Positions 8,007 through 59,502 of a stretch of 64,000 bases of DNA are shown piece by piece. A program made the position numbers and the translations under genes. The notes beneath the pieces are model-generated. The model was not told the origin of the DNA. It saw nothing but the letters and a program-made list of their open reading frames with translations, and did no database searches. The stretch covers positions 151,057 through 215,056 of the forward strand of contig CAZSVP010000001.1 of assembly GCA_964610335.1 (NCBI GenBank), given 5' to 3'. How positions within the stretch are numbered: the stretch's first letter is position 1; each line of letters opens with the position of its first letter. The stretch comes from an uncultured Candidatus Saccharibacteria bacterium (GTDB taxonomy: Bacteria; Patescibacteriota; Saccharimonadia; CAILAD01; BJGX01).

Positions 8007-9104
8007 ATGAAAACATCCGTAACTCGTGAAAATCTAATAAAGGCCATAACTCAAGTAGGACATATTATTCATCCTCGTAATCCTTTGGAAATCTTGGCAA
8101 CCATAAAAGTAACAGCTGAGAAGAATACTCTGGTTCTACAAGCCAATAACCTGGAGGTAGCACTGCAGTGTACTATTCCAGCCAGTGTTACTACCCAAGG
8201 TGCGATCTGTGTCCCTACTCGCCTCTTTCAAGATCTCATCACAAACATTCAAGACGAAAAAGTTGAGCTTCAGACGCAAGACAATACATTGGTAGTGAAA
8301 ACCGCCAATACCAATTCTGAAATAGCTGGATTTGCCACCAGTGAGTTCCCTGCCATCCCCGAGGTAGCCAACACAGAGTCACTGAGTCTACCGGTAGTGG
8401 AGTTTCGACAAGGTATAGCTCGAGCAATAGTAGCTGTCGGTATTGACGATGCTCGACCAGTACTAAGCGGCATATATTTTGCCACCAATGACAAAACCCT
8501 AACCTTGGCTGCCACAGATAGCTACCGACTTTGCGAACAACAGATATCTATAAAGCCCCAGGCTGACGTGGCCGTAATCGTGCCAGCAGCAACACTTCAG
8601 GAAGTACTGCGACTACTGCAGAGTGTCGACTCAGATACAATCACTATCAATGTCAGTGAGGCTGCCTTGCAGATAGAGATTGATTCTACACTGTTAGTGG
8701 CTCAGCTTATCAATGGCAAATACCCCGACTATACCAAGATTATTCCAGAGCAAAATACTACTGAGCTGCGCCTCAATCGCGAAGAGCTATTGCGCGCAGT
8801 CCGCACCACAGCCCTTTTTAGCCGTGAAGGGTCACTTAGTATCACACTAACGCTTGCAGGCGACAAATTGTCACTCAAGGCCCAGACGACGTCAGTAGGT
8901 ACCGGTGAAAGCACCATAGCCATTCCGAAAGTTGCCTCCCCTACTACTATTGTTGTAAACGCCAAATATCTTAGCGATGCGCTTAACTGTTTGGATAGTG
9001 AGATGGTGTCGCTCGGCTTCAATACCGAGCTCGAACCACTCATAATCAGACCAATCGACAAAGCCGACCACTTTGTCCACATTATCATGCCGCTACGTGG
9101 CTAG
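8007..9104 (+). CDS. dnaN: DNA polymerase III beta sliding clamp
   Basis: 365 aa, three-domain clamp architecture, position after dnaA, RBS AAGGAG upstream. Confidence 0.9.
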   Translation: MKTSVTRENLIKAITQVGHIIHPRNPLEILATIKVTAEKNTLVLQANNLEVALQCTIPASVTTQGAICVPTRLFQDLITNIQDEKVELQTQDNTLVVKTANTNSEIAGFATSEFPAIPEVANTESLSLPVVEFRQGIARAIVAVGIDDARPVLSGIYFATNDKTLTLAATDSYRLCEQQISIKPQADVAVIVPAATLQEVLRLLQSVDSDTITINVSEAALQIEIDSTLLVAQLINGKYPDYTKIIPEQNTTELRLNREELLRAVRTTALFSREGSLSITLTLAGDKLSLKAQTTSVGTGESTIAIPKVASPTTIVVNAKYLSDALNCLDSEMVSLGFNTELEPLIIRPIDKADHFVHIIMPLRG

Positions 9105-29907: not shown

Positions 29908-32900
29908 ATGCTTCGTTACTACCGACGTATGCAAACATTCGAGCCAATGTACGGCCGGATGGCTCGCGCCGTGGCCGAGCTGATGGATCCAGAAACAAGC
30001 TTTAGTGCCGAATGGTGCTATCACCTCGAGGGGCGCGGTGAACTAAGTGAGCCTGAGGTAAGTCGACTTACCTACTTGCTCAGCGAGACGTTTGATCCCG
30101 AGGGCTTCAGCTCAGTAACTTGGCTAACCAACAGCTCAGGTGCGTTGGAGCTTGGCCCCCGGCCGAACTTCGAGACGGCGGCCAGCTCGACCAGTCTCAA
30201 CGTGCTTCGCAAGATCGGCATCGATGGTTTCACTCGCGTGGAGCGCAGTTGGCGGATCGGTTTGAGTGAGTTGCCAGAGCCACTTGGCTTGGCCATGTTG
30301 GCCGAAGAGCTGCACGATCGCATGACCGAGATGGTCTACGACGATCCACCACTCAGCTTCCAGCTCGATAGCAGGCCAGAGCCAACCTTTACCATTGCCA
30401 TGATGGAGCATGGCCTGGACGCTCTGTTGCGGTTCAACAGCCAACGCGAGCTGGGCTTCGACAGCGAAGACTGCGAATGGCTGATGTGGCTGTTTGTGGA
30501 TCACATGGGACGCAACCCCACCAACGTAGAGCTCAACATGCTGGCTCAGGCCATGAGTGACCATAGTCGGCACACCATCTGGCGAGCCATCTTGGTACGC
30601 GGTGGCGAGCAGCTCGATTACACCTTGTGGGAGCTGATCCAGCGACCACTACAACGCCATCGCGGTAACGTGTTGGTTGGCTTTGCCGACGACAGCTCAG
30701 CTATCGCTGGCTACGAAGTTGACGTATTGATGTGTGAGTCCCAAGCCGGACCAGCGCAGCTGTACGTTGCTCGTAGGGCACGAGCCATCATTTGCACTGG
30801 CGAGACCCACAACCACCCCAGCGGTGTAGAGCCCTACCAAGGCGCCTACACAGGTGGTACGGGCATGCTGCGTGATGTGTTCTCGATGGGACAAGGCAGC
30901 TTCTTGGGCACCGTCGGATCCGGCTATGCTGTCGGAAGGCTGGCCCTGCCTGGACTTGGCTGGACTCATGTACCCGGTCCGTGGATCGAGCAGACCAAGT
31001 TGCTGGTCGAGGCCAGCAATGGCCTCAGTGACGGCATGAACTGTCAGGGCGTACCAGTCACTGGGGGCTGGGTACAAAGTTACAGCCACACTGAGCCTTC
31101 GGGCCAACATGTGGGCTGGGAGTGCAAACCAATCGTGCATGCTCAGGGCACCGGCACCATCGACATGGACATGCTCCATGGCGAAAAGCCCCAACCCGGG
31201 CAGTGCATGGTGCTACTAGGTGGACCAAACTACCGCATCGGCATGGGAGGCGCCAGTGCTAGCAGTGTGCCTTCGGGTGAGAACACTGCCCAGGCCGACT
31301 TCGACTCGGTGCAGCGCGGTGATGCCGAGATGCAACAGCGCGTCTATCGAGTTGTGAAGGCGCTGGTCGAGGTAGGTATACGGCGTGGTAACAGTGTCAT
31401 CAAGCTGGTCCACGATCTGGGGGCTGGTGGTAACTGCAACGCCATCCCCGAGGCTGCCGAAGGCGCAGGAGCGCGGGTTTGGGCTGATCGGTTTGCGATT
31501 GCCGATCCGACGCTCAGCGACGAGGAGCTGTTTGCCAACGAGTCACAAGAACGTGAAGTAATTGTGATTGAATCGGCTGATTGGCCATTGGTGCAGCAAA
31601 TCGCCCAGCGCGAGAACTGTCCAGCTCAGAATGTAGGCGACATCACCGGCGACGGCAGGATCCAACTGGTGGGTCGAGACGGCGAGCTGGCAGTCGATAT
31701 GGTGCTCGACGACTTCTTGGGTCGCAAGATGCAGAAGCGGCGTGAGTTTGAGCCTTGGGTGCCTCAGTTGCGGCCATTGCAGCTACCCTATGTTGAGATC
31801 TCTGACATGCTGGAACGGGTGCTTCAACTACCGTCGGTGGCCTCGAAACGCTACCTCACCAGCAAGGCTGATCGCAGTGTCGGTGGCTTGGTGGCACAGC
31901 AGCAGTGTGTGGGGCCTTGGCAACTCACATTGGCCGACTTCAGCCTCGAAGCTCACGGCTTCTTTGGCGACACTGGCACAGCACGTGCCTTTGGCGAGGC
32001 CGCCATTGTGTGCTTGGTCGATCCCGAAGAGGCTGCACGCCTATCAGTGTGTGAAGCAGTGATGAACCTCATGGGTGTGCGCCTCAGCGACGTGCTGGAA
32101 GCGAGTTTGCAGGTCAACTGGATGTGGGCGGCGCGAGCTGACATGGATCGCTATCAGCGGGCCGTGAAGGCTCTCAGCGATTACTGTTGTGAGCTTGAAC
32201 TGCCCACCGAAGTCGGTCATGGCCTAGCGCCAGATGGTGGCAAGGACAGCAACAGCTTGCAGCGCACCATGGCCGATGGCAGTGTGGTGGTGGCGCCAGG
32301 ACAAGCGGTAACCACCGCCTATGGCCCGGTGCCAAACGTTGCCAAGAAGGTCACGCCCGACATCAAGGCCCGACAGCGGGGCTTTACCGGTTCCAAGATG
32401 GTCTGGGTGAGATTCAGCAACTGGAGTCCAGCACTCGGCGGATCGGCATTGGCACAGGCCTACGATCAGTTGGGCGACGAGGCTCCCAAAGCTGCCCCGC
32501 CCCAAGAGCTGCTCCGGCTTAAGCGTGTGATTGATGGCTGGATCGACCAAGGCTACATCTTGGCGCTCCACGACGTTGGTCAAGGAGGCCTCGTCACTGC
32601 GGTGGCGGAGATGGCGTCCGGCGGCGGCTGCGGCGTACTGCTCGACTTCCAGCTCAACGGCTATTCGGCGGAAGGGTTGTTGTTTGGCGAGTCACCAGGG
32701 CTGCTACTGGAAGTTCCAGATAGCAAGCTGTATACGTTCTTGACGAGCTTGCGAGAGCAAGGACTATTGGCAGATGCAATTGGTCGCACACATCCTGACT
32801 GGCATACCAACAAAGGGCTGCAAATCAAGTGTGATGGCCGCGTTGTACTCCAACAGCCGCTTGTGCGGTTGCTGGAGTGGTGGGAGCAGACCAGCTATGT

Positions 32901-33813
32901 GATCGATCGCGTGCAGTCCAATCCTTTCACGGCCGACCGTGAGTACACCAACTTCAGCCTCGATCACTTGCCGCGTTGGCAACTTACCTATCAACCACGG
33001 GCTACCAGCCCAGGTGCGCTGCTCAGCCCGGCCAAGCCGAAGCTCGGCGTGATCCGTGAAGAAGGCAGCAATGGTGACGAAGAGCTCAAGGCAGCCTGGA
33101 TGCTGGCCGGCTTCGAGGTGAACGACATCACGATGACCGATTTGGTAGAAGGCCGGGCGACCCTCCAGGGCCTAGCTGGCATCTCGCTACCAGGTGGTTT
33201 CAGCTACGGCGACGTGCACGATGCTGGCAAGGATTGGGCTTCGGTGATACGTTCCAACGCTCGAGTAGCCGACGAATTTGCGACCTATCGCGAGCGAGCT
33301 GACAACTTCATCTTTGGGCCCTGCAATGCCTGTCAATTGATGGCTTTGTTGGGCTGGCTCGACCCGCCCGGCACACCAGAGCACGAGTATACAAGGTTCG
33401 TGCACAACAGGTCGGCTCGTTTCGAGTCACGGTTTGTGACGGTTCATGTGCCTCAGAGTGCCTCCGTGTTGCTTAGTGGTATGTCTGGTTCGCGCCTCGG
33501 TGTGTGGCTATCCAGTGGCGAGGGTCAGTACCGGCCTGGTGCCGGTGGTGCACCGGCTCTTCAGTACGTGAATCCCTATGGTGATCTGCTGGCTGAGCCG
33601 GGCGACTATCCGCACAACCCCAACGGTAGCGCGGATAGCGTGGCTGGAGTGTGCGGTCGTAATGGTCAGGATCTGGCCATGATGCCCCACCCGGAGCGTA
33701 CGCCCTATCGGCTCGAGCAGTTCCCCTGGCTTCCCAGCGAGTACCGGGATCTGCCGGTCAGCCCCTGGGCGCGGCTGTTCCAGAACGGTTACGACTTCGT
33801 TCGTAACAGCTGA
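29908..33813 (+). CDS. purL: Phosphoribosylformylglycinamidine synthase, large single-chain type (lgPurL, 1301 aa) (high-GC island 1)
   Basis: PurM-like synthetase repeats plus C-terminal class-I glutaminase domain (GPCNACQ catalytic Cys, HPER). The length is typical of the proteobacterial/eukaryotic single-chain enzyme. Confidence 0.9.
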   Translation: MLRYYRRMQTFEPMYGRMARAVAELMDPETSFSAEWCYHLEGRGELSEPEVSRLTYLLSETFDPEGFSSVTWLTNSSGALELGPRPNFETAASSTSLNVLRKIGIDGFTRVERSWRIGLSELPEPLGLAMLAEELHDRMTEMVYDDPPLSFQLDSRPEPTFTIAMMEHGLDALLRFNSQRELGFDSEDCEWLMWLFVDHMGRNPTNVELNMLAQAMSDHSRHTIWRAILVRGGEQLDYTLWELIQRPLQRHRGNVLVGFADDSSAIAGYEVDVLMCESQAGPAQLYVARRARAIICTGETHNHPSGVEPYQGAYTGGTGMLRDVFSMGQGSFLGTVGSGYAVGRLALPGLGWTHVPGPWIEQTKLLVEASNGLSDGMNCQGVPVTGGWVQSYSHTEPSGQHVGWECKPIVHAQGTGTIDMDMLHGEKPQPGQCMVLLGGPNYRIGMGGASASSVPSGENTAQADFDSVQRGDAEMQQRVYRVVKALVEVGIRRGNSVIKLVHDLGAGGNCNAIPEAAEGAGARVWADRFAIADPTLSDEELFANESQEREVIVIESADWPLVQQIAQRENCPAQNVGDITGDGRIQLVGRDGELAVDMVLDDFLGRKMQKRREFEPWVPQLRPLQLPYVEISDMLERVLQLPSVASKRYLTSKADRSVGGLVAQQQCVGPWQLTLADFSLEAHGFFGDTGTARAFGEAAIVCLVDPEEAARLSVCEAVMNLMGVRLSDVLEASLQVNWMWAARADMDRYQRAVKALSDYCCELELPTEVGHGLAPDGGKDSNSLQRTMADGSVVVAPGQAVTTAYGPVPNVAKKVTPDIKARQRGFTGSKMVWVRFSNWSPALGGSALAQAYDQLGDEAPKAAPPQELLRLKRVIDGWIDQGYILALHDVGQGGLVTAVAEMASGGGCGVLLDFQLNGYSAEGLLFGESPGLLLEVPDSKLYTFLTSLREQGLLADAIGRTHPDWHTNKGLQIKCDGRVVLQQPLVRLLEWWEQTSYVIDRVQSNPFTADREYTNFSLDHLPRWQLTYQPRATSPGALLSPAKPKLGVIREEGSNGDEELKAAWMLAGFEVNDITMTDLVEGRATLQGLAGISLPGGFSYGDVHDAGKDWASVIRSNARVADEFATYRERADNFIFGPCNACQLMALLGWLDPPGTPEHEYTRFVHNRSARFESRFVTVHVPQSASVLLSGMSGSRLGVWLSSGEGQYRPGAGGAPALQYVNPYGDLLAEPGDYPHNPNGSADSVAGVCGRNGQDLAMMPHPERTPYRLEQFPWLPSEYRDLPVSPWARLFQNGYDFVRNS

Positions 33814-34766: not shown

Positions 34767-35018
<252 letters not shown>

Positions 35019-36829: not shown

Positions 36830-36910
36830 GTGTACAATTATATCTCATAAACGAACTCAGGCGAGGCCCCGAAGGGCCCCGCCTGTTTAGTTCGACAACT
36901 TGTGTCATGC

Positions 36911-37219
36911 TCACACCAGGTTTGTTCGCCCCCGCGCCTGGTAGAACTGCAGGGACAGCAGCGTGAGTCGAGCGTGATCCTCGGCCGTGGCGCTGTGAAG
37001 GTCGTCGCGCAGCCGCTCCAGCATGGACATGTCCTCTGAAGAGAAGATGTGCATGGCGAGCTTGCTGTCGTCGGCGCCGTCGAAGATGTCGGCCACTGCA
37101 TCACTGATCTGCGCCAGTTCATCAGCCGCGATCACACGGCTCGATCCTGATGATGGGTTGTCCTGGCCGTCTACCAGTCGCAGGCTGCGGCTGGGGTGAC
37201 GGTGGTTTCTTCTGGTCAT
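36911..37219 (-). CDS. Hypothetical protein (high-GC island 2)
   Basis: ORF with G/C-rich third positions; overlaps the upstream gene (operon). Confidence 0.4.
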   Translation of the reverse strand: MTRRNHRHPSRSLRLVDGQDNPSSGSSRVIAADELAQISDAVADIFDGADDSKLAMHIFSSEDMSMLERLRDDLHSATAEDHARLTLLSLQFYQARGRTNLV

Positions 37220-37728
37220 GCTTGATCCCCTTTGGGTTGGCTTCTACAGAGTTGCAGAAGGTATTGGATCTCGATGTCGCTCAGCTGCATCACGAACTTG
37301 CGCGGATCCCCTGACATTTCAGGGTATTCTTGACCAACTACTGATCGAAGATCGGGCTGGCGTTGCAACTCAGCGAGATTCCTCATCGCCTCCAGCATGC
37401 CGACTCGCAGCATGGTGGTGCTATAACCACTCAGGTTGGGCTCAGCAGGGTTGTGGCCGTAGTTCTGAGTACGATACCAGCGCCAGAGCGGATGGCTGCG
37501 TATGGCCTGTTCCAGCTCGATTCGGCTCATGTCAGCAGGTGATTTGCCATACCAGCTAGGTCTGGGTGGTCGCTTGGGGCGGGGTGGTGGTGGAACAGAC
37601 TTTGTCTGCCCTACCGGTATGCTAACCTTACGGTTGGCAACAGGGCTAGCCACTACTCTGGGCCGTCGTTTGGGCTGCTTTGGCACGATCTCACCTCCTT
37701 TGGTGAAAACAGGTTGTCGAAAGGGCAT
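37216..37728 (-). CDS. Hypothetical protein with a Pro/Arg-rich N-terminus (high-GC island 2)
   Basis: 170 aa ORF in a consistent frame; stop/start overlap with the downstream gene. Confidence 0.45.
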   Translation of the reverse strand: MPFRQPVFTKGGEIVPKQPKRRPRVVASPVANRKVSIPVGQTKSVPPPPRPKRPPRPSWYGKSPADMSRIELEQAIRSHPLWRWYRTQNYGHNPAEPNLSGYSTTMLRVGMLEAMRNLAELQRQPDLRSVVGQEYPEMSGDPRKFVMQLSDIEIQYLLQLCRSQPKGDQA

Positions 37729-37849
37729 CCGAAGGTCGGATATGGGGCTAGATTATACAATAAATATTAACTCTTTACAAGTATTACAGATATGAAAAGA
37801 GCCCCACCGTAGTGAGACTCTTCTCATCACAGTGGGGCTTTACCCCTGT

Positions 37850-38662
37850 TCAGGCCGGGTCGAACTCGTCGAGCAAGGCCTCGAGCATCGATGCGGTGCG
37901 GGTCAGCTCGGAGGTGCTGAGCCGATCTGCATCGCTCAGCTTGGTCTGGGCAGCCTTCTCGACCGAGTCGAAGTGCTGTCCCATGCCGTTGAGCCCCTCC
38001 TTGAGGCTGGTGAGCCTGGAAAGCTGGTTCTCCAGGGACGACTTGGCATCGCAGTGGGCCTGCTCGGCTGCGGCCTGCTCGGCAGCTGCGCGCTCAGCGG
38101 CTTGGTGCTCACGGTACCTGGCCACGATGGGCTTGGCGGTGGCAAGCACGAGGCTGAGCCGCTCGACTGCTTGGTTGCTGAACTCGGCCTGGGCAGCCTC
38201 CTCGAGCTCCTGGCGGATGATCTCGGGCAGCCTCAGTCCGTCGATGGCGAGCACGCCTCGAGCGTGCTCGCAGCTCTTGTCGTACTGCTGCATCGCTGCA
38301 GCCAGCAGCTGGTCGCGCTTGGCCTGTTCGGCTGCCTCGGCCGCTGCTTGCAGCTCGGCCTGATAGGCGTCCTCGCGGTCGAGCTCGGTCTTGTCCTCGG
38401 CACGGTAGATGCGCCCGATCAGATCGATCAGCTCGTCGCGGTCCAGATCGTCGCGCTTCACCTGGTCCCAGATGCCCTGGCGCAGGTTCTGCTTGTGCCA
38501 CTGCGAGTTGAGCACTCGCTTGCGCAAGTCCTCGAGCTCCTCGTCGGTGAGGTCTACGGCCCACACACCGACCTCGGTGATGCGGACGAAGATGAGCTCG
38601 GTCGGCTCGGCGTTGCGTCGCTTTGACTTTGACATAACTATACCTCCCCCGGGGGTAGTCAC
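37850..38662 (-). CDS. Hypothetical coiled-coil (A/E/Q-rich) protein (high-GC island 2)
   Basis: 270 aa. Of the many overlapping ORFs in this GC-rich stretch, this is the longest with coherent codon bias. Confidence 0.45.
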   Translation of the reverse strand: MTTPGGGIVMSKSKRRNAEPTELIFVRITEVGVWAVDLTDEELEDLRKRVLNSQWHKQNLRQGIWDQVKRDDLDRDELIDLIGRIYRAEDKTELDREDAYQAELQAAAEAAEQAKRDQLLAAAMQQYDKSCEHARGVLAIDGLRLPEIIRQELEEAAQAEFSNQAVERLSLVLATAKPIVARYREHQAAERAAAEQAAAEQAHCDAKSSLENQLSRLTSLKEGLNGMGQHFDSVEKAAQTKLSDADRLSTSELTRTASMLEALLDEFDPA

Positions 38663-40930: not shown

Positions 40931-41827
40931 TTATTTACCAGCTTTGTTGCGGATGGTTTGGTACTTGTTACTAATCTTCTTGAGTTGGGCCTTGGCATCG
41001 CTGTTTTGCACTATCAAATCAGGACGAATACGCAAGAACGCATTGGGCTGTTTGTACTTCTCTTGCATAGCGACATGTCGTAGATGAACTCTAAATCCTC
41101 TGCTATCGAGCCTATCTAAGAAGCCTAGATGAAAAAGATGTATCGGTAGTCCATGGTGCTTAAACGAATAATTGGGGAACTGATCACGTAGAAATGGACT
41201 ACTAGCCAGTAGCTGTTCCCAAACTCTCTCTCCGTGGACTGGTTTGGCCATAATGCTCCAGTATGGTAACTGCAGATCTGCTGTAGGCATGAGATCGCGC
41301 TCAAACTTTACACCGTTGGTAGTGAGCCACCAACCAGTCGAGAATCGACCAGCTTTATATGTAGGTGTCTCGCGCAGTCGAAAAAGGTTCAATAGGTAGT
41401 AAACTATACCTTTTGTGATATATAGCCGATGTGGCGATGTTACAAACAGCAGATCAATATCACTCTTGTCTGTGCAGTTGCCATAAGCCACGCTGTTTAT
41501 GACCACGATTGATTTGATCCAAGGGATAAGTCTTAGAATTTTACCAAGACGGCGAGCTTTGGCAAGTAACCTGGTTTGCTCTAATGTATGAGGATTTTGT
41601 TTTGGATAATGGTGCCCGGCAATTCCGAAACTGCCATCCTTATATCCAACTACAGCTTTCTTGCGTCGCAGTGATGTAAGAGCGCTTTCGACAGCCACTA
41701 CTGTGGCCTTGCAGTGTATCAACTCAAAGAGCTGTTTCGAGTTGAGCCTGAGACCAAAAACAGCGTAGTAACTCAAGCAGTCGAGAATAGCGGTTTGGAT
41801 AGTTTTGGCGTGACGGGTGGTGGGCAT
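40931..41827 (-). CDS. Hypothetical protein with a minimal nucleotidyltransferase-like motif
   Basis: ...NSVAYGNCTDKSDIDLLFV fits the G[SG]x9-13Dx[DE] pattern; otherwise unassigned. Confidence 0.35.
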   Translation of the reverse strand: MPTTRHAKTIQTAILDCLSYYAVFGLRLNSKQLFELIHCKATVVAVESALTSLRRKKAVVGYKDGSFGIAGHHYPKQNPHTLEQTRLLAKARRLGKILRLIPWIKSIVVINSVAYGNCTDKSDIDLLFVTSPHRLYITKGIVYYLLNLFRLRETPTYKAGRFSTGWWLTTNGVKFERDLMPTADLQLPYWSIMAKPVHGERVWEQLLASSPFLRDQFPNYSFKHHGLPIHLFHLGFLDRLDSRGFRVHLRHVAMQEKYKQPNAFLRIRPDLIVQNSDAKAQLKKISNKYQTIRNKAGK

Positions 41828-42189
41828 GAGATTAAGTATATAGGATTACCAAAAAACTAATAAGAATAAGGATTTTACTCCAAGCTTTGCTTCCTGGAGC
41901 AAGCTTCTTTTGATGGACCAAAAGAAGCCAAAAGTCCTTTGGCATGGACACAATCTAGCAATGATTAGTTAGCTCTTCCTTACTATCCTGTGGAACTCGT
42001 CCTAAGAAGTCCTCAAACAGTCCTCGGATAGTAGTGTCATAGCTACCAAATCTTGCTGATTGCTTTAATGCCATTAAAGAGAAACCAATGCTGGCAATTA
42101 AGAAGTCGGAGATCAAAAAACTTCGGCCATCTGCCTTTTAGCCTTACTACTTAACTTATTGTCCTCTGCTACAAACTTTGAAACGAGTC

Positions 42190-43210
42190 AAAAACTGTAG
42201 TGAGGAGACGAAGCAAATCTCCTAGTGTGGGAGGGTGGCCATCGGTCGATGTGGCCACCCTCCCCGACAAACATCGCTGGTGGTGGAGGGCAGAACCTCC
42301 GAAGGTGCTCAGCCACAGTCTGGCTGAAAGGACTGAGCACCTCCGGGCGACGGCCGACCGGGAGGGGTCGGCTGGTGGTGAGCTGCCGAGTTTTTCGCGC
42401 GGACGCGAAGCTTTCGACAGCGTGCGGCGCCGGCTAGGCAGGTCGGAGACCCACCAAGCATCTGGCGTCGCTGACCGTCCCCGGTCTTCGCTAGGGGACG
42501 GTTGCATGCTCCCGCAAGCGGGAGAAGGTGGCCGGGGCGCGTGCTCGGCACAAAGACTCTGGTCGACCGGTCGGATATGGTTGGTTCCATGGCACCAACT
42601 TCACCTATTGGAGAGACGAGCGCTTTGCAAGGCCCCGGCAACATGGTCGGGGAATTGACCGTTTGGGTTGACGTTGTTTTGAAACGTTCCAAATGGGTTC
42701 CCCGTTGAGATTGCCGACACGCACAGGTACTCCGCCCGGACGGGTGGTGTCCCCTGCTTGCCGTGCGCCATGCGCGTGTCGGCAGAGCTGGGGTAGAGCC
42801 AGGATGAAGCATCGAAACGCAGCTTCCTGACTCTACCCTGAGAGAACAGGTTCACGCCCCGAAGGGCGGCCCCCTCTTGAGTTCCTGCGTCAAGCAGGTA
42901 CCTCCCTTTCTCCCAATGCAACCAACCTTTCCCACGCCTTCATTCCACCTCGGCATCAGTGGTTCGATGGTGACCCCAAGAACTGTCAGAATACTTTTCT
43001 ATGCTTGCCGCCGAAGCGGTCGAAGCCCTACTAGGAATTCTGAAAGTCCACGTGGCCTGTCTAGCCATTACATTAGCCGTCGGGTTCAGTCGGAGTGGTT
43101 CTCTGAAGGTTGCAACTTGCACACCGTGGCACGATCGAATCATGCCAGAAGTGCAGGCTACAACCATCAGATAGAGATTTGCTTCGTCAAGGTATCTTCT
43201 AAATCTCTCT
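42190..43210. other. GC-rich ~1 kb region with no coherent ORF, densely packed with stable hairpins (candidate large structured ncRNA or decayed foreign fragment)
   Basis: Only short, mutually overlapping ORFs with Arg/Pro-rich wrong-frame composition. Examples: a 13-bp perfect hairpin GGGAGGGTGGCCA...TGGCCACCCTCCC at ~42228-42262, and several GAAA/GCAA/CGAA-looped stems. Confidence 0.3.
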
Positions 43211-43250
43211 AGAAGTTAGTTAGAAATAATAGTCTTGCGGCCGCTGACTG

Positions 43251-44591
43251 TCAAGTTTTGATCATGGCAGAGAGCTGCTTGGTCTTGTCAGCTAGTAGCT
43301 GTTTACTATTGGCTTCGACATTGACTCGCAGCACTGGCTCAGTATTGCTGGCACGTACATTGCACCACCACTCAGGATATTCGATAGTTAAACCATCAAG
43401 ATTGTCTTGTACACCATCGGACAGGGTTTCTTTGATCTTGGATATTACAGCCTTAGTGTCCTTGACGGTCAGATTGAGCTCATCGATCGAGTAGTATGGA
43501 CTATCCAGCCCTTTTACTAGCTGAGAGAGTGTTTTGTCACTGGTTGTCAGTATATGGAGTATAGTGAGTGCCGCTATCAAGCCACTATCGGCGCCATAGT
43601 TGTCGCCAAAGTAGAAATGCCCGGAGTGTTCACAGCCAAATACTGCTTTGGTAGTTTTCATCTGTTCTAGTATGAAGCTGTGCCCTACCTGGGTGCGCTC
43701 TGTTTTACCACCCAGCTGTTCGATGGTATCGCGCACCAAGTGCGATGTCGGTGCGCTGTACAAAATAGTCGCCTTGGGGTTTGTCTTGAGCATGTGTACG
43801 GCAAGCAATGCGCCTAGTTCTCCAGCACTCACGCGTTTGCCATGCTCGTCGATCATAAATACTCGGTCGCCATCACCATCAAATGCTAGGCCACAATCGA
43901 GCTTCTTGTTTGTCACCATCTCTTGGAGGTCAGCCGTGGTAGTAGCAATCATAGGATTGGCCACATGATGCGGGAAGCTACCGTCGAGCGCTAGATCAAG
44001 CCCATGGATCTGCAGCGCAGTCAGCTCATGTAGGTATGGCAGCACAATTGCCTCCATGCCGTTTCCAGCATCAACGCCAACTTGGAGCGGTGCAAACTCA
44101 TCGCCCGAGAGGTTGATACAGTGTTCTACCCAGTCACGAAGCACATGTTTCTGAGTGACTTTACCTGTCTTCGTGCCTGTTTTGTACTTGTTGGCCATTA
44201 CAAATTGTTTGATAGTGCTAAGCCCACTATCGCTACCAATTGGTGATACTCCCGACCCCGTCAGCTTAAAGCCATTGTATTGAGCGGGGTTGTGACTAGC
44301 AGTCACCATTGCTGCACCAGCCAGCTGGTATTGGCCAACAGCCCAGTAGCTCATGTCAGTGGTAATGCGGCCCAGATCCCAGACGTCGCGACCTTGTTTG
44401 ATCAGCCCTTCTATCAGAGCCTCACTTAGTTCTGCTGAACCCAGGCGCATATCTCGACCCACCGCCGCAATTCCTGCTGGCAAGAAATCAGCTAGAGCCT
44501 GCCCAACTGCGTAGGCTAGCTCGGGAGTGATATCTTCTGGTATGCGACCACGAATGTCGTAGGCATGAAAAACGCTCTCATTAAACTTCAT
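43251..44591 (-). CDS. Phosphoglucomutase/phosphomannomutase (alpha-D-phosphohexomutase family)
   Basis: Active-site TASHNPAQYNGFK motif, 446 aa. Confidence 0.85.
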   Translation of the reverse strand: MKFNESVFHAYDIRGRIPEDITPELAYAVGQALADFLPAGIAAVGRDMRLGSAELSEALIEGLIKQGRDVWDLGRITTDMSYWAVGQYQLAGAAMVTASHNPAQYNGFKLTGSGVSPIGSDSGLSTIKQFVMANKYKTGTKTGKVTQKHVLRDWVEHCINLSGDEFAPLQVGVDAGNGMEAIVLPYLHELTALQIHGLDLALDGSFPHHVANPMIATTTADLQEMVTNKKLDCGLAFDGDGDRVFMIDEHGKRVSAGELGALLAVHMLKTNPKATILYSAPTSHLVRDTIEQLGGKTERTQVGHSFILEQMKTTKAVFGCEHSGHFYFGDNYGADSGLIAALTILHILTTSDKTLSQLVKGLDSPYYSIDELNLTVKDTKAVISKIKETLSDGVQDNLDGLTIEYPEWWCNVRASNTEPVLRVNVEANSKQLLADKTKQLSAMIKT

Positions 44592-49289: not shown

Positions 49290-50183
49290 TCAGTTGACCT
49301 GACGCCCCTCGAGTCCATTGATGAACGCCACCTGCGCATCATGTCCGCCGTTCTCGCCGGTGGCCCTGAGGCCAGCAGCGATGTAGACGAGCATGTGACG
49401 CGCCGAACGCTCGGTCTCGCTCTTGGGCGGCCCGAAAATTGCGTCCATGGTGTCGATCGAGGCCACTCGTGGCATGGCAGGCACGATGGCCTGACCGGCC
49501 TTGAGCTTGCCAACCATCTCGTTGTAGAGCTGGTCGACGTTCTGACCGAACGCGGGATACTTGGTGCTCAGAAGCTTGGACTGCTCCTGGTACACCTCGA
49601 TCTCGCGCTCAGCACTGGCCTGCACCGACTTGCCATCCCAGCCCGGGCGTGCCGACTGCTCGGCATGTCGCAGCTCGTGGAGCAGCACCAGCCCGGCCCA
49701 GGTGGGCGTGAACTGCTGGTTGTCGGCTACCAGGACGCTCATCAGGTTGCCGTTGAATTCGGCAATCCGTCCGTTGGCGCCGATCACATCGGCGAACGAG
49801 TTGCCGTTCTGGGCATCCTCGGTCAGAAGTGGCATGAAGTCGAACTTGCGCTCACCCGTGGGTTCACGCAAGTTCGCGAAGCCGTCGTGCGTGGGTGCGC
49901 CGATGCGACCGTGCTCGCGAGCGAAGTTGACCACCATGGTCAACTCCATCGAGCCGAGGCTGCTGGCCGTGTCGTCGGCGTTCTTGAGCCAGGCATCGGC
50001 CAGTGCGAGATGACGCTGCTTGGCATCGTCACTCACCTTGGTGATCGGGATGGTGCCCTGGCCGTACTTCGTATAACCGTAGGTCGGCTCGGTCGGTGCC
50101 GACTGGCTGGACGGAGAGCTGCTGCAGCCCGCCAAGAAGGCGAGCAACAGAATCAGCCCAAGGAACTTGCGGGGGGACTTCAT
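49290..50183 (-). CDS. Putative lipoprotein zinc metallopeptidase (HEXXH), high-GC island 5
   Basis: Signal peptide with lipobox LLAFLAGC; HELRHAEQ motif; start set at MKSPRKF. Confidence 0.5.
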   Translation of the reverse strand: MKSPRKFLGLILLLAFLAGCSSSPSSQSAPTEPTYGYTKYGQGTIPITKVSDDAKQRHLALADAWLKNADDTASSLGSMELTMVVNFAREHGRIGAPTHDGFANLREPTGERKFDFMPLLTEDAQNGNSFADVIGANGRIAEFNGNLMSVLVADNQQFTPTWAGLVLLHELRHAEQSARPGWDGKSVQASAEREIEVYQEQSKLLSTKYPAFGQNVDQLYNEMVGKLKAGQAIVPAMPRVASIDTMDAIFGPPKSETERSARHMLVYIAAGLRATGENGGHDAQVAFINGLEGRQVN

Positions 50184-50330
50184 GGGTGACCTCCAGGTCG
50201 ATGTTGTCGGGGAGCGCAATCACCACGGTGATGAAAGCTGAACTATACTACCACAAAAGTACATAAATGTCAATACTTACAACAGGTTAAACCTATTGTT
50301 TTGTATCTGATAAGCTATATAATTGATCTG

Positions 50331-51439: not shown

Positions 51440-52561
51440 TCAGCGCACCTGCAGCGTGTCGGCCGTGAAGGTGATGTCGAGTGGCCGGATCTCAACCTGC
51501 TTGGCGTCGTGAGCTTCGACCTTGCCGGCGATGTGACACTCGAAGCCGGCTCGCTTGATGATGGTCTCAGCGCGCCAAGCCTCGGAGCGCTTCACGATCA
51601 GCGCGTAGCCGGCACCTTGGTTGTAGTCGCCGTACATGTTGTACAGGCTGATGCCTGCTTCCTTGCGGATGTACTCGAACACCTCGAGCTGAGGCGGCAG
51701 AATATCGATCGCGTAGTTGAACGGCTGCTCGGTGTTGGCACGCATGATCTTGCGCCAACCGTGTCCGGTGATGTTGGCAATGTAGTGGATCTCCACCCGC
51801 TCCTCCAGCAACCGTCGCACAGCACTTGCATAGATCGGTGTGGGCTGCAACAACGCGTCGACGAACCGTTCGCCGCTGGGCATGGTGGCCTTGAGACCCA
51901 CCAGCGGCAGCAGATCGCGGATCAGGGTGATGCCATTGCTGTGCACACCTGAGCTGTGGATCAGGATGATCAAGTCGTCATCTTGGATGTTGCCGTGGAT
52001 CACTCGACTCTTCGGCTTGACGATGCCCATGGCCGAGCCACCGAGTACGGCGGAGCCAGGCATCACCACATCACGCAAGGTCGATGACTCACCACCACCC
52101 CACACGCCGCCAGCGGCCTTGCAGGCCTCAGCCCAGCCGGCAAACAAGCCTCTGGTGCGGGCTTCGCGCTCGAACCAGCTGCCATGGCCGGCAGCAACGT
52201 GCAGGGCTCCGGACAGCAGTCTGGCACCGAGAGTGGCCATGTCGTTGAAGATCATGGCGGCGTTGGTCTGGCCGATCGAGTGCCAGAACAGTTGCTCTTG
52301 TTCCGGCGAGAGCGAGGCCAGGTAGCGAGCGACCTCCTCCGGAATGCGGTTGAGCGTACCCAACCCTTCCTCGACATGTGCCAGGTAGTGGTCGGGTGCC
52401 TCGAGCAGGAAGGCGCTCTCACCGCGCGACCAGTCGGCCACACGGTACTGGGTGTCGGCGATGGCTTCGTCGGTACCGGCCGCATACAGCTGGGCCAGCA
52501 CCTTGAATGGATCCATTGTGGCATAGCTCACGACATCGGCGTACTTCGGTGAATCAGTCAT
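51440..52561 (-). CDS. purM: Phosphoribosylformylglycinamidine cyclo-ligase PurM (AIR synthetase), high-GC island 6
   Basis: DDDLIILIHSSGVHSNGITLIRDLL, ITGHGWRKI and YNQGAGYALIV blocks align with E. coli PurM ([46 protein letters not shown]). Confidence 0.75.
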   Translation of the reverse strand: MTDSPKYADVVSYATMDPFKVLAQLYAAGTDEAIADTQYRVADWSRGESAFLLEAPDHYLAHVEEGLGTLNRIPEEVARYLASLSPEQEQLFWHSIGQTNAAMIFNDMATLGARLLSGALHVAAGHGSWFEREARTRGLFAGWAEACKAAGGVWGGGESSTLRDVVMPGSAVLGGSAMGIVKPKSRVIHGNIQDDDLIILIHSSGVHSNGITLIRDLLPLVGLKATMPSGERFVDALLQPTPIYASAVRRLLEERVEIHYIANITGHGWRKIMRANTEQPFNYAIDILPPQLEVFEYIRKEAGISLYNMYGDYNQGAGYALIVKRSEAWRAETIIKRAGFECHIAGKVEAHDAKQVEIRPLDITFTADTLQVR

Positions 52562-57790: not shown

Positions 57791-57883
57791 GGAGAGGTAC
57801 CCAAGAGGCTGAAGGGGCTGGATTGCTAATCCGGTAGGGGGGAGCAATCCCCCGCGAGGGTTCGAATCCCTCCCTCTCCGCCA
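57791..57883 (+). tRNA. tRNA-Ser (anticodon GCT), long variable arm
   Basis: GGAGAGG...anticodon loop TTGCTAA...GGTTCGAATCC...CCA. Confidence 0.85.
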
Positions 57884-57939: not shown

Positions 57940-58031
<92 letters not shown>

Positions 58032-59123: not shown

Positions 59124-59200
59124 GTACCCGTAGCTCAGTTGGATAGAGCGTTGGCTTGCGGAGCCAAAGGTCGGGGGTTCGAATCCCTTCGGGTACACCA
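59124..59200 (+). tRNA. tRNA-Arg (anticodon GCG by my hand fold)
   Basis: 77 nt, perfect 7-bp acceptor stem GTACCCG/CGGGTAC, D-loop AGTTGGATA, T-loop TTCGAAT, CCA end. Confidence 0.75.
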
Positions 59201-59454: not shown

Positions 59455-59502
59455 TTACCAGTTCGTCTATCAAGGCGCGCAACCCACAACTGAAAACTGC
59501 GA

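Follow-up and report, generated by a model that had tools for sequence, protein, structure and literature searches.

Only a handful of bacterial noncoding RNAs (ncRNAs) longer than about 500 nt are, to our knowledge, recognized, and each large one that we know to have been studied (RNase P RNA, transfer-messenger RNA (tmRNA), group II introns, OLE, GOLLD and ROOL) turned out to have unusual biochemistry or architecture. As far as the account in PMC12286853 indicates, OLE, GOLLD and ROOL form RNA-only multimers. The element described here is located in a 64-kb stretch of DNA (the window) of a bacterium belonging to Saccharibacteria, in the candidate phyla radiation (CPR), and its terminal arms delimit positions 42207-43188. 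As in OLE, GOLLD, ROOL, HEARO and raiA, the predicted RNA exceeds 500 nt, is intricately folded, appears to stand alone in GC-rich intergenic DNA free of open reading frames (ORFs), and has conserved secondary structure and an unassigned biochemical role. Unlike these classes, it is restricted to Saccharibacteria, it resides among housekeeping genes and not in prophages or next to tRNAs, and it is not accompanied by genes for dedicated partner proteins. It also differs from them in size variation (~ 4-fold) and in a much faster turnover of its interior. A literature search found no description of this RNA.

We consider it highly likely that the element is a stand-alone minus-strand gene for a stable and highly structured ncRNA of an undescribed Saccharibacteria family, situated between glmM and a gene similar to nucleotidyltransferases of the Pol-beta superfamily. 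An earlier note, made from the window sequence, had drawn attention to about 1 kb of GC-rich DNA with no coherent ORF and with dense, stable structure, and this description was borne out. GC content of the element is 0.597, while it is 0.44-0.49 in adjoining 1-kb bins. The genome, called AT-rich in the note, has about 45% GC and is thus AT-rich only moderately. All reading frames are interrupted by stops (2-11 in each), the longest open runs being 180 codons on the minus and 149 codons on the plus strand. Folding energy compared to dinucleotide shuffles gave z = -6.1 for the plus and z = -11.7 for the minus strand, and 0 of 20 shuffles was equally stable. Inverted repeats amount to 15 pairs per 1.6 kb, compared to 1-2 in each of the other GC-rich islands of the window. 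The perfect 13-bp hairpin listed in the note (GGGAGGGTGGCCA/TGGCCACCCTCCC) is present at 42229-42241/42252-42264. The GGTGCTCAG/CTGAGCACC stem listed there also exists, with 14-nt arms that are 93% complementary, but it is not capped by a GAAA tetraloop, as its loop is 20 nt long and only contains GAAA. Not seen at that time was a perfect 15-bp inverted repeat, GACGAAGCAAATCTC / GAGATTTGCTTCGTC (42207-42221 and 43174-43188), which encloses the entire element and corresponds to the terminal helix P1. The element is present in a single copy within the window.

Covariation was examined on an alignment of five sequences, from the window and from homologous loci L033, L036, L002 and L006. The RNAalifold consensus comprises 266 base pairs in 31 helices. 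Standard pairs are formed in 93.5% of the alignment cells concerned, and in 37.5-42.3% when 3' partners are slid by 1-3 columns. Double changes were found in 54 of the 266 pairs, as opposed to 24.9±3.5 in column shuffles (none of 500 reached 54) and 2-12 in slid controls. The secondary structure of the element is under selection. Besides covarying base pairs, the large structured ncRNA proposed in the earlier note is supported by a conserved promoter, by terminators in relatives, and by the same locus being occupied across Saccharibacteria.

These data also bear on the alternative kept in the note, that of a protein gene acquired from a high-GC donor and subsequently degraded. Several islands of 55-65% GC in the window indeed encode proteins (FGAR amidotransferase, AIR-synthase-like and major vault protein-like), and 167-181-aa ORFs within the element appear as gene calls in public assemblies. 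We nevertheless reject this possibility and give it practically no credence. There is no codon periodicity, mismatches between the window and L002 or L006 being even across codon positions (p = 0.82 and 0.87, respectively), and internal ORFs had no match in the Pfam search. When these ORFs were searched against 5.8 billion and against 1.84 billion proteins, the only matches were spurious ORFs in copies of the element, two for the 167-aa minus-strand ORF and one for the 152-aa plus-strand ORF. Stems covary, and the 15 inverted-repeat pairs contrast with 1-2 in coding islands. Finally, GC content is 68% in predicted paired positions and 44% in unpaired ones, the latter being equal to the genome background, A/C-rich and G-poor. 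Because the GC excess is confined to paired positions, GC-richness of the element is explained by its stems and not by foreign origin. Public gene calls of 153-200 aa lie inside the element on either strand (L001 7780-8283, L037 3604-4149, L006 574-1104, L039 5398-6430; P0001, P0002, P0128). Spurious ORFs of 150-200 aa within the RNA now stand as proteins in public databases, which presents an annotation problem.

Several features indicate the strand. The minus-strand consensus structure contains 133 G-U cells vs 25 A-C cells, and folding energy of the alignment is -306 kcal/mol, compared to -267 kcal/mol for the other strand. Stems with CGAA-type loops were reported in the earlier note. The stems belong to the minus strand, on which CGAA, CGGA and CAAG read as UUCG, UCCG and CUUG tetraloops, visible on this strand only. 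They include three C(UUCG)G, one U(UUCG)A (C(UUCG)G in L002), one G(UCCG)C and one G(CUUG)C loop. The sole promoter-like site found in 41700-43400 is TTGACA-17-TATTAT, with -35 and -10 boxes invariant in all six aligned homologues. The same promoter is present in L002, where terminators of glmM itself are located upstream, and distant lineages carry TTGACA-17-TAAAAT (L038) and TTGACA-17-TACAAT (L039). Judged by these sequence features, the element is an RNA gene on the minus strand. Its transcription would start near 43219, giving an RNA of about 1.1 kb, or up to ~ 1.3 kb with the 3' tail included.

At the other end, L038 and L039 have a canonical intrinsic terminator on the same strand ~ 60 nt past P1, and the next gene is closely preceded by a TATAAT box of its own, which indicates two transcription units. 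In the window, the RNA may end at the terminator-like hairpin 41943-41927, after which comes UUCUUUUGG, or at a weak hairpin with a U6 tract at ~ 42125-42150 (read by eye). This arrangement is relevant for the possibility that the element acts in cis as a leader or regulator of the operon that follows (nucleotidyltransferase-like gene, groES and groEL), perhaps as an RNA thermosensor or attenuator of very large size whose terminators would govern read-through. Wherever downstream sequence is known, the element lies directly upstream of the 298-aa nucleotidyltransferase-like gene, groES and groEL on the same strand. In addition, L041 is without a canonical terminator between the RNA and the next gene, and the 3' tail in the window extends to ~ 100 nt from the start codon. 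We find a leader improbable, given the strong terminators in L038 and L039 and the own TATAAT box a few bases before the next ATG. Moreover, L006 has another downstream neighbour, L043 keeps the operon without the RNA, and ends joined by a terminal helix typify stable RNAs that act in trans rather than leaders. Thermosensors and attenuators known to us are all far smaller than 1 kb.

Closest in the species collection is an uncultured Candidatus Saccharibacteria metagenome-assembled genome, L002, with 66% identical GlmM. Gene order in the window, all on the minus strand, is three FemAB-family genes, glmM/phosphoglucomutase (43251-44591), the element, the 298-aa gene (40931-41827), groES and groEL. 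At least five other lineages have a homologue at the same locus, which follows glmM and precedes the nucleotidyltransferase-like gene and groES-groEL; copies occupy it in L002, L006, L033, L035, L036, L037, L038 and L039. Elements in L033, L035 and L036 (GlmM 87-93% identical) are 89-95% identical to the one in the window. The L002 element is 899 nt long and shows the same terminal helix and promoter, together with related hairpins that have compensatory differences, such as GGGAGGGTGGTC/GACCACCCTCCC. In L038 and L039 (GlmM 56-57% identical), common features are the promoter, 5' hairpin, terminal helix, 3' hairpin and terminator. The two arms of the terminal helix lie 532 to 982 nt apart in these elements. 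A short form, of ~ 270 nt, occurs at the same locus and strand in L041 (5405-5680; GlmM 52% identical), where a terminal helix related to P1 (AAGCGAAAGCA/UGCUUCGUU) surrounds four hairpins (z = -7.8). The size range in the family is thus ~ 270 to ~ 1,100 nt, or about 4-fold. Occupation of one locus across the lineages, a single copy in the window and the lack of plasmid and phage matches speak for vertical inheritance.

Sequence is conserved in the core hairpin H1 and in the adjacent junction strands. In H1, 37 consecutive nucleotides are identical across both long-form groups, whereas whole elements are 72-75% identical. A covariance model of this hairpin (R1) had one match in the window and matched L041 at the same locus and strand (E = 3.5e-4). 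Model R2, which comprises H1, junction, H2 and junction, matched L041 with 38.9 bits (E = 8.6e-7), and the junction strands CUUCAUCGGGAAG and CCCGACCAUCGU are common to both. By the model match and the common strands, L041 is a demonstrable homologue of the window RNA core. Relative to it, the window RNA has ~ 380 nt extra between P1 and H1, and ~ 260 nt extra between H3 and H4. As the short form shares the core, the window RNA represents an expanded version. No internal duplications were found in the window RNA as a source of these expansions. A weaker candidate was detected at the same place in L044 to L051 (E = 0.15). In L044 (4430-4745), it is a short structured RNA of ~ 270 nt (z about -7.7) in the gap between glmM and the nucleotidyltransferase-like gene, and it is regarded as a weak candidate only.

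Scanning of metagenomes with the conserved 19-mer GGCGCACGGCAAGCAGGGG gave 24 matches, one of them a true copy (L030, identical to L006) and the others chance occurrences in high-GC coding DNA. The only match in the viral scan was also by chance.

Perfect 15-bp inverted repeats at the ends, the conservation of ends around an interior wholly different between lineages, and variable presence and size could also be expected of a selfish or mobile insertion without function for the cell, similar to miniature inverted-repeat transposable elements or to intervening sequences. We see a very slim chance of this. The 64-kb window contains one copy, and the site and orientation are the same in all lineages. 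The conserved promoter is aligned to the element, the repeat covaries as an RNA helix, and internal stems have evolved by compensatory changes. Furthermore, no target-site duplication was seen at the ends (CCTT|GACG... vs ...CGTC|TCCT), no transposase is located nearby, and blastn of the element against plasmid and phage collections gave no match.

Parts of the predicted RNA are listed in Table 1, in the direction of transcription.

Table 1. Coordinates of features assigned to the RNA element in the window.
Feature	Position	Strand	Remark
Sigma-70-type promoter TTGACA-17-TATTAT	43226-43254	-	11/12 consensus positions; overlaps glmM stop codon
5' leader hairpin CUUCUAgagagauUUAGAAG	43196-43215	-	Read from sequence
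P1 5' arm (GACGAAGCAAAUCUC)	43174-43188	-	Perfect 15-bp complement of 42207-42221
Lineage-specific 5' expansion, ~ 380 nt	42792-43173	-	Consensus helices 2-14 with compensatory changes
H1 core hairpin, 73 nt, 14-bp outer stem, irregular nearly invariant interior (GGCGCACGGCAAGCAGGGGACACCACCCGUCCGGGCGGAGUACC)	42712-42784	-	
H2 (CGGGGAAC...UUCCCCG) and flanking conserved junction strands (AUCUCAA / ACCAUGU)	42648-42704	-	Helices 16-19
H3 domain (GUUGCCGGGGCC ... GCCCCGGCCAC)	42528-42645	-	Helices 20-25: 38 pairs, 11 with double changes
Lineage-specific 3' expansion, ~ 260 nt	42265-42527	-	Indels between lineages
H4, 13-bp perfect hairpin, directly before P1 3' arm	42229-42264	-	
P1 3' arm (GAGAUUUGCUUCGUC)	42207-42221	-	Helix 1 of consensus
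3' hairpin CCUCacUACAGUUUUUGA...UCAAAGUUUGUAgcaGAGG	42163-42205	-	Nearly invariant in window, L033, L036, L002, L006
3' tail, non-coding, lower GC	41917-42162	-	Candidate part of same transcript

P1 is kept in all homologues, with compensatory changes in L038 (GAUGAAGUAAAUCGC/GCGAUUUACUUCAUC) and L039 (GACGAAGUAAAUCGC/GCGAUUUACUUCGUC). A 5' leader hairpin occupies the same position in every lineage, while its sequence differs in L038 (UCGCC...GGCGA) and in L039. The structure of the 3' hairpin is likewise kept with covariation (CUUCA...UGAAG in L038, GCUUC...GAAGC in L039). Within the 5' expansion, a long hairpin is accompanied by a domain that has CCGACU-GAA-CCCGACG / CGUGGG-AAA-GGUUGG as its closing strands and by two more hairpins, one of them with a UUCG loop. 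This expansion has no counterpart in the L041 short form, in which H1 begins ~ 16 nt after P1. At the position of H1, L038 carries GGGGAGACAACCCGUCCGG where the window has GGGGACACCACCCGUCCGG. The 3' expansion contains the G(CUUG)C and G(UCCG)C hairpins, a hairpin with a CCUCCC loop, and a long hairpin at 42299-42346, with single-stranded CACCACCAG linkers. Double changes affect 9 of the 19 pairs in helix 30 of this segment. Counterparts of H4 are GGGAGGGUGGUC/GACCACCCUCCC in L002 and L006, and CCGGGGCUCGGGGUC...GACCCCGGGCCC at the same position in L041 (equivalence read by eye). In the 3' tail, the hairpin CUAUCCGAGGAC...GUUCCACAGGAUAG is common to the window (tail at 41930-42160), L002 (tail at 8440-8660) and L006 (tail at 1260-1470). 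In L033 and L036, closest to the window in the RNA itself, the tail is replaced by other sequence and is thus mosaic. No reading frame of a small ORF in the tail is conserved across homologues.

Known RNA families were searched for with Rfam 15 at the gathering score in the whole window and in seven homologous loci, and at E up to 5-10 in the element, L002, L038, L039 and L041. E-values were multiplied by 4,227 families, so that matches of 5-15 bits would not appear. Within this scope no family matched, including RNase P, tmRNA, 6S, signal recognition particle (SRP) RNA, group I and II introns, GOLLD, ROOL, OLE, HEARO and raiA. Permissive matches were generic hairpin look-alikes (microRNA precursors, viral stem-loops), far below threshold and not recurring between homologues. 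The earlier note had found no convincing group II intron, RNase P RNA or tmRNA by eye, and its view holds after the Rfam, ARAGORN and signature-motif scans. The RNA is an undescribed family in Saccharibacteria, within the known category of large structured bacterial ncRNAs.

Individual candidates were discarded on additional grounds. ARAGORN found no tmRNA in the window. A 6S RNA is a single extended hairpin of about 180-200 nt with a large central bubble, and all forms of the element are multi-branched. For a group II intron, the signature scan revealed no domain V-like pattern. In Patescibacteria, no group II intron has been found (PMC13011429). A group I intron does not correspond to the flanks, which are a promoter and a terminator and not halves of a tRNA, rRNA or coding sequence. 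Concerning RNase P RNA, the P4 motifs CR-I (GGAAAGUCC) and CR-V (ACAGAA..GGCUUA) are not conserved on either strand in five homologues. The complete set of signature motifs scanned on both strands of the five homologues (CR-I, CR-V, CR-II, T-loop, SRP, domain V) had no conserved member.

RNase P RNAs of CPR bacteria often score below Rfam thresholds, with helices extended or missing (PMC8172020). A strongly diverged and expanded housekeeping RNA (RNase P, 6S, SRP or tmRNA) could hence have been missed by Rfam models. The element shares with diverged CPR RNase P RNAs an end-pairing terminal helix comparable to P1, a multi-helix core or junction, and lineage-specific helix extensions of the kind that defeat standard models (PMC8172020). 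RNase P-like strings can also be found in the window, GAAAGTCC on the plus strand and GGGAAAGGU / GAACCCGACGGCU on the minus strand. These strings are, however, located in the lineage-specific 5' expansion, which is missing from L041 and L038. Unlike CPR RNase P RNAs, the element lacks P4, CR-I and CR-V signatures, gives no weak RNase P match, and is not universal at the locus, L043 being without it. Models of 6S, SRP and tmRNA likewise had no match in the window, L002, L038, L039 and L041 even with E up to 5-10, ARAGORN reported no tmRNA, and signature motifs are unconserved on both strands. The core is conserved in housekeeping RNAs of this type, but no alignment is possible between the interiors of L038, L039 and the window RNA. 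A disguised housekeeping RNA is in our opinion highly improbable.

The near-consensus sigma-70 promoter is placed to drive synthesis of an RNA whose two ends are paired by P1, flanked by the 5' and 3' hairpins. Inside P1, covarying stems form a multi-helix junction (H1-H4), with sequence conserved in H1 and the junction strands. Two GC-rich hairpin blocks (~ 380 and ~ 260 nt) have been added in this lineage to the core of ~ 270 nt, which occurs alone in more distant relatives. As a best guess, the RNA would act in trans as a stable scaffold or as the RNA of a ribonucleoprotein (RNP). P1 and the flanking hairpins would define and protect its ends, an arrangement of paired ends being known from 6S, SRP, RNase P and tmRNA. 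P1 may also be a processing site of RNase III, for which a long terminal duplex is a typical substrate. A protein or a ligand would be bound at the nearly invariant H1 and junction, which would constitute the functional site. The hairpin expansions, which evolve fast, would be peripheral, similar to rRNA expansion segments or to extended helices of CPR RNase P. A small conserved core with a terminal stem and large, rapidly evolving GC-rich hairpin insertions resembles, by analogy only, rRNA expansion segments, intervening sequences and the yeast telomerase RNA as a flexible scaffold, and in the insertions of all of these structure is kept and sequence is not. The window RNA, in contrast, is outside any rRNA, and it is not known to have a catalytic or templating role.

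The expansions may in addition display repeated single-stranded CACCA(G) to a partner. Counts of the CACCA motif, frequently found as CACCACCAG, are 5-7 on the RNA strand and 0-2 on the other strand in the window, L002, L006, L038 and L039. The RNA-strand counts are reached by 0-17 of 500 shuffles. Only two copies are present in L036 and none in L041. The motif is mostly located in unpaired linkers, also in the otherwise unalignable L038 and L039. Lineage-variable length and number of hairpins, and a short single-stranded motif repeated 5-7 times between stable hairpins, are reminiscent of the CsrB/RsmZ sponges. Unlike in CsrB/RsmZ, the motif is not GGA, it has no known partner, and its enrichment is modest (3- to 4-fold). 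Extending these observations, we may speculate that the element represents a new RNA class restricted to Saccharibacteria, in which an RNP- or ligand-binding core of ~ 270 nt has repeatedly grown into a CACCA(G)-displaying sponge or scaffold of ~ 1 kb, or into a self-assembling RNA as OLE, ROOL and GOLLD. This extension is doubtful, and we do not expect it to be correct in full. The partner of a sponge or scaffold would be a protein or an RNA, for example Shine-Dalgarno-like GGUGG sequences. If true, such a role would explain why a gene of more than 1 kb that does not encode a protein is kept in a small genome.

Saccharibacteria have very small genomes, of roughly 1 Mb, and live as episymbionts attached to other bacteria. 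Considering the small genome and the attached lifestyle, a conserved and strongly promoted RNA of ~ 1.1 kb is unlikely to be idle. The CPR host and the four-fold size range between relatives are notable traits of the family. This range also makes the family tractable, since the form of ~ 270 nt defines a minimal core and expanded forms reveal parts that vary freely. The conserved terminal helix and H1 offer handles for pull-downs and structural work.

Some observations weigh against a stand-alone RNA gene with a common functional core. First, interiors of L038 and L039 align neither to the window RNA nor to each other, and in these loci models R1 and R2 detected no core beyond noise. A common functional core is consequently demonstrated for the window, L002/L006 and L041 lineages only. 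L038 and L039 are considered homologous on account of the locus, promoter, P1, the hairpins flanking it and a single short motif; their interiors are also hyper-structured (z = -11.4 and z = -17.1, respectively). Second, L043 keeps the flanking genes with a gap of only 69 nt and no element, so that some relatives can do without the RNA at this locus. Third, both the start and the 3' end of the RNA in the window are only inferred, and its own terminator is weak or ambiguous. Fourth, the five sequences used for covariation constitute only two well-separated groups, and their relatedness is accounted for by the slid control and not by the shuffle. Finally, A/C-rich loops by themselves would account for part of the CACCA enrichment, and the L041 short form does not contain the motif.

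The 298-aa gene located between the RNA and groES has orthologues in L044 (4753-5643) and L041 (5693-6583), which encode proteins of 296-300 aa. The protein shows a weak match to the Pol-beta-superfamily nucleotidyltransferase domain PF01909 (E = 3e-6 in L044, 0.016 in the window), and a winged helix may be present at its N-terminus. A TATAAT box is positioned a few bases before the ATG, and the mRNA is predicted to be leaderless. The AlphaFold model of the protein (pLDDT 52) is too poor for a functional link. As the gene is also present where the RNA is absent, no functional link to the RNA is claimed.

The earlier note had related the motif CCCCGAAGGG in the element to a hairpin elsewhere in the window. 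A second occurrence does exist at 36867, but the relation does not hold: the sequence at 36858-36885 forms a terminator hairpin of the usual kind, with C(UUCG)G as its loop, and the similarity is coincidental. On the minus strand, this hairpin reads CAGGCGGGGCCC-UUCG-GGGCCUCGCCUG. It is placed between two minus-strand genes, is followed by a TATAAT-like box, and looks like an intrinsic terminator.

Other GC-rich islands of the window were dismissed as further copies of the element because of few inverted repeats and because some are clearly protein-coding. Islands of 55-60% GC harbour purine-synthesis genes, a large FGAR amidotransferase of the purL type at 29908-33813 on the plus strand and an AIR-synthase-like gene at 51440-52561 on the minus strand. 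These genes look horizontally acquired. They are notable because Saccharibacteria genomes are usually described as being without nucleotide synthesis. Islands at 37216-38662, 49290-50219 and 59503-60333 differ from the RNA element in that inverted repeats are nearly missing. Both of their strands carry long ORFs, which do not match Pfam, and they probably encode novel proteins of foreign origin.

A plus-strand ORF of 605 aa (60312-62129), in an island of 65% GC at ~ 59500-62100, has matches to the shoulder domain of the major vault protein (PF11978, E = 1.5e-25) and to a vault repeat (PF17795). Such a gene is unusual in bacteria, and it sits in a compositionally foreign island beside tRNA-Arg. 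The window contains four tRNA genes, at 34767-34856, 57791-57883, 57940-58029 and 59124-59200, comprising three tRNA-Ser (GGA, GCU, UGA) and one tRNA-Arg (GCG). The tRNA-Arg borders the 65% GC island, and an integration site could lie there.

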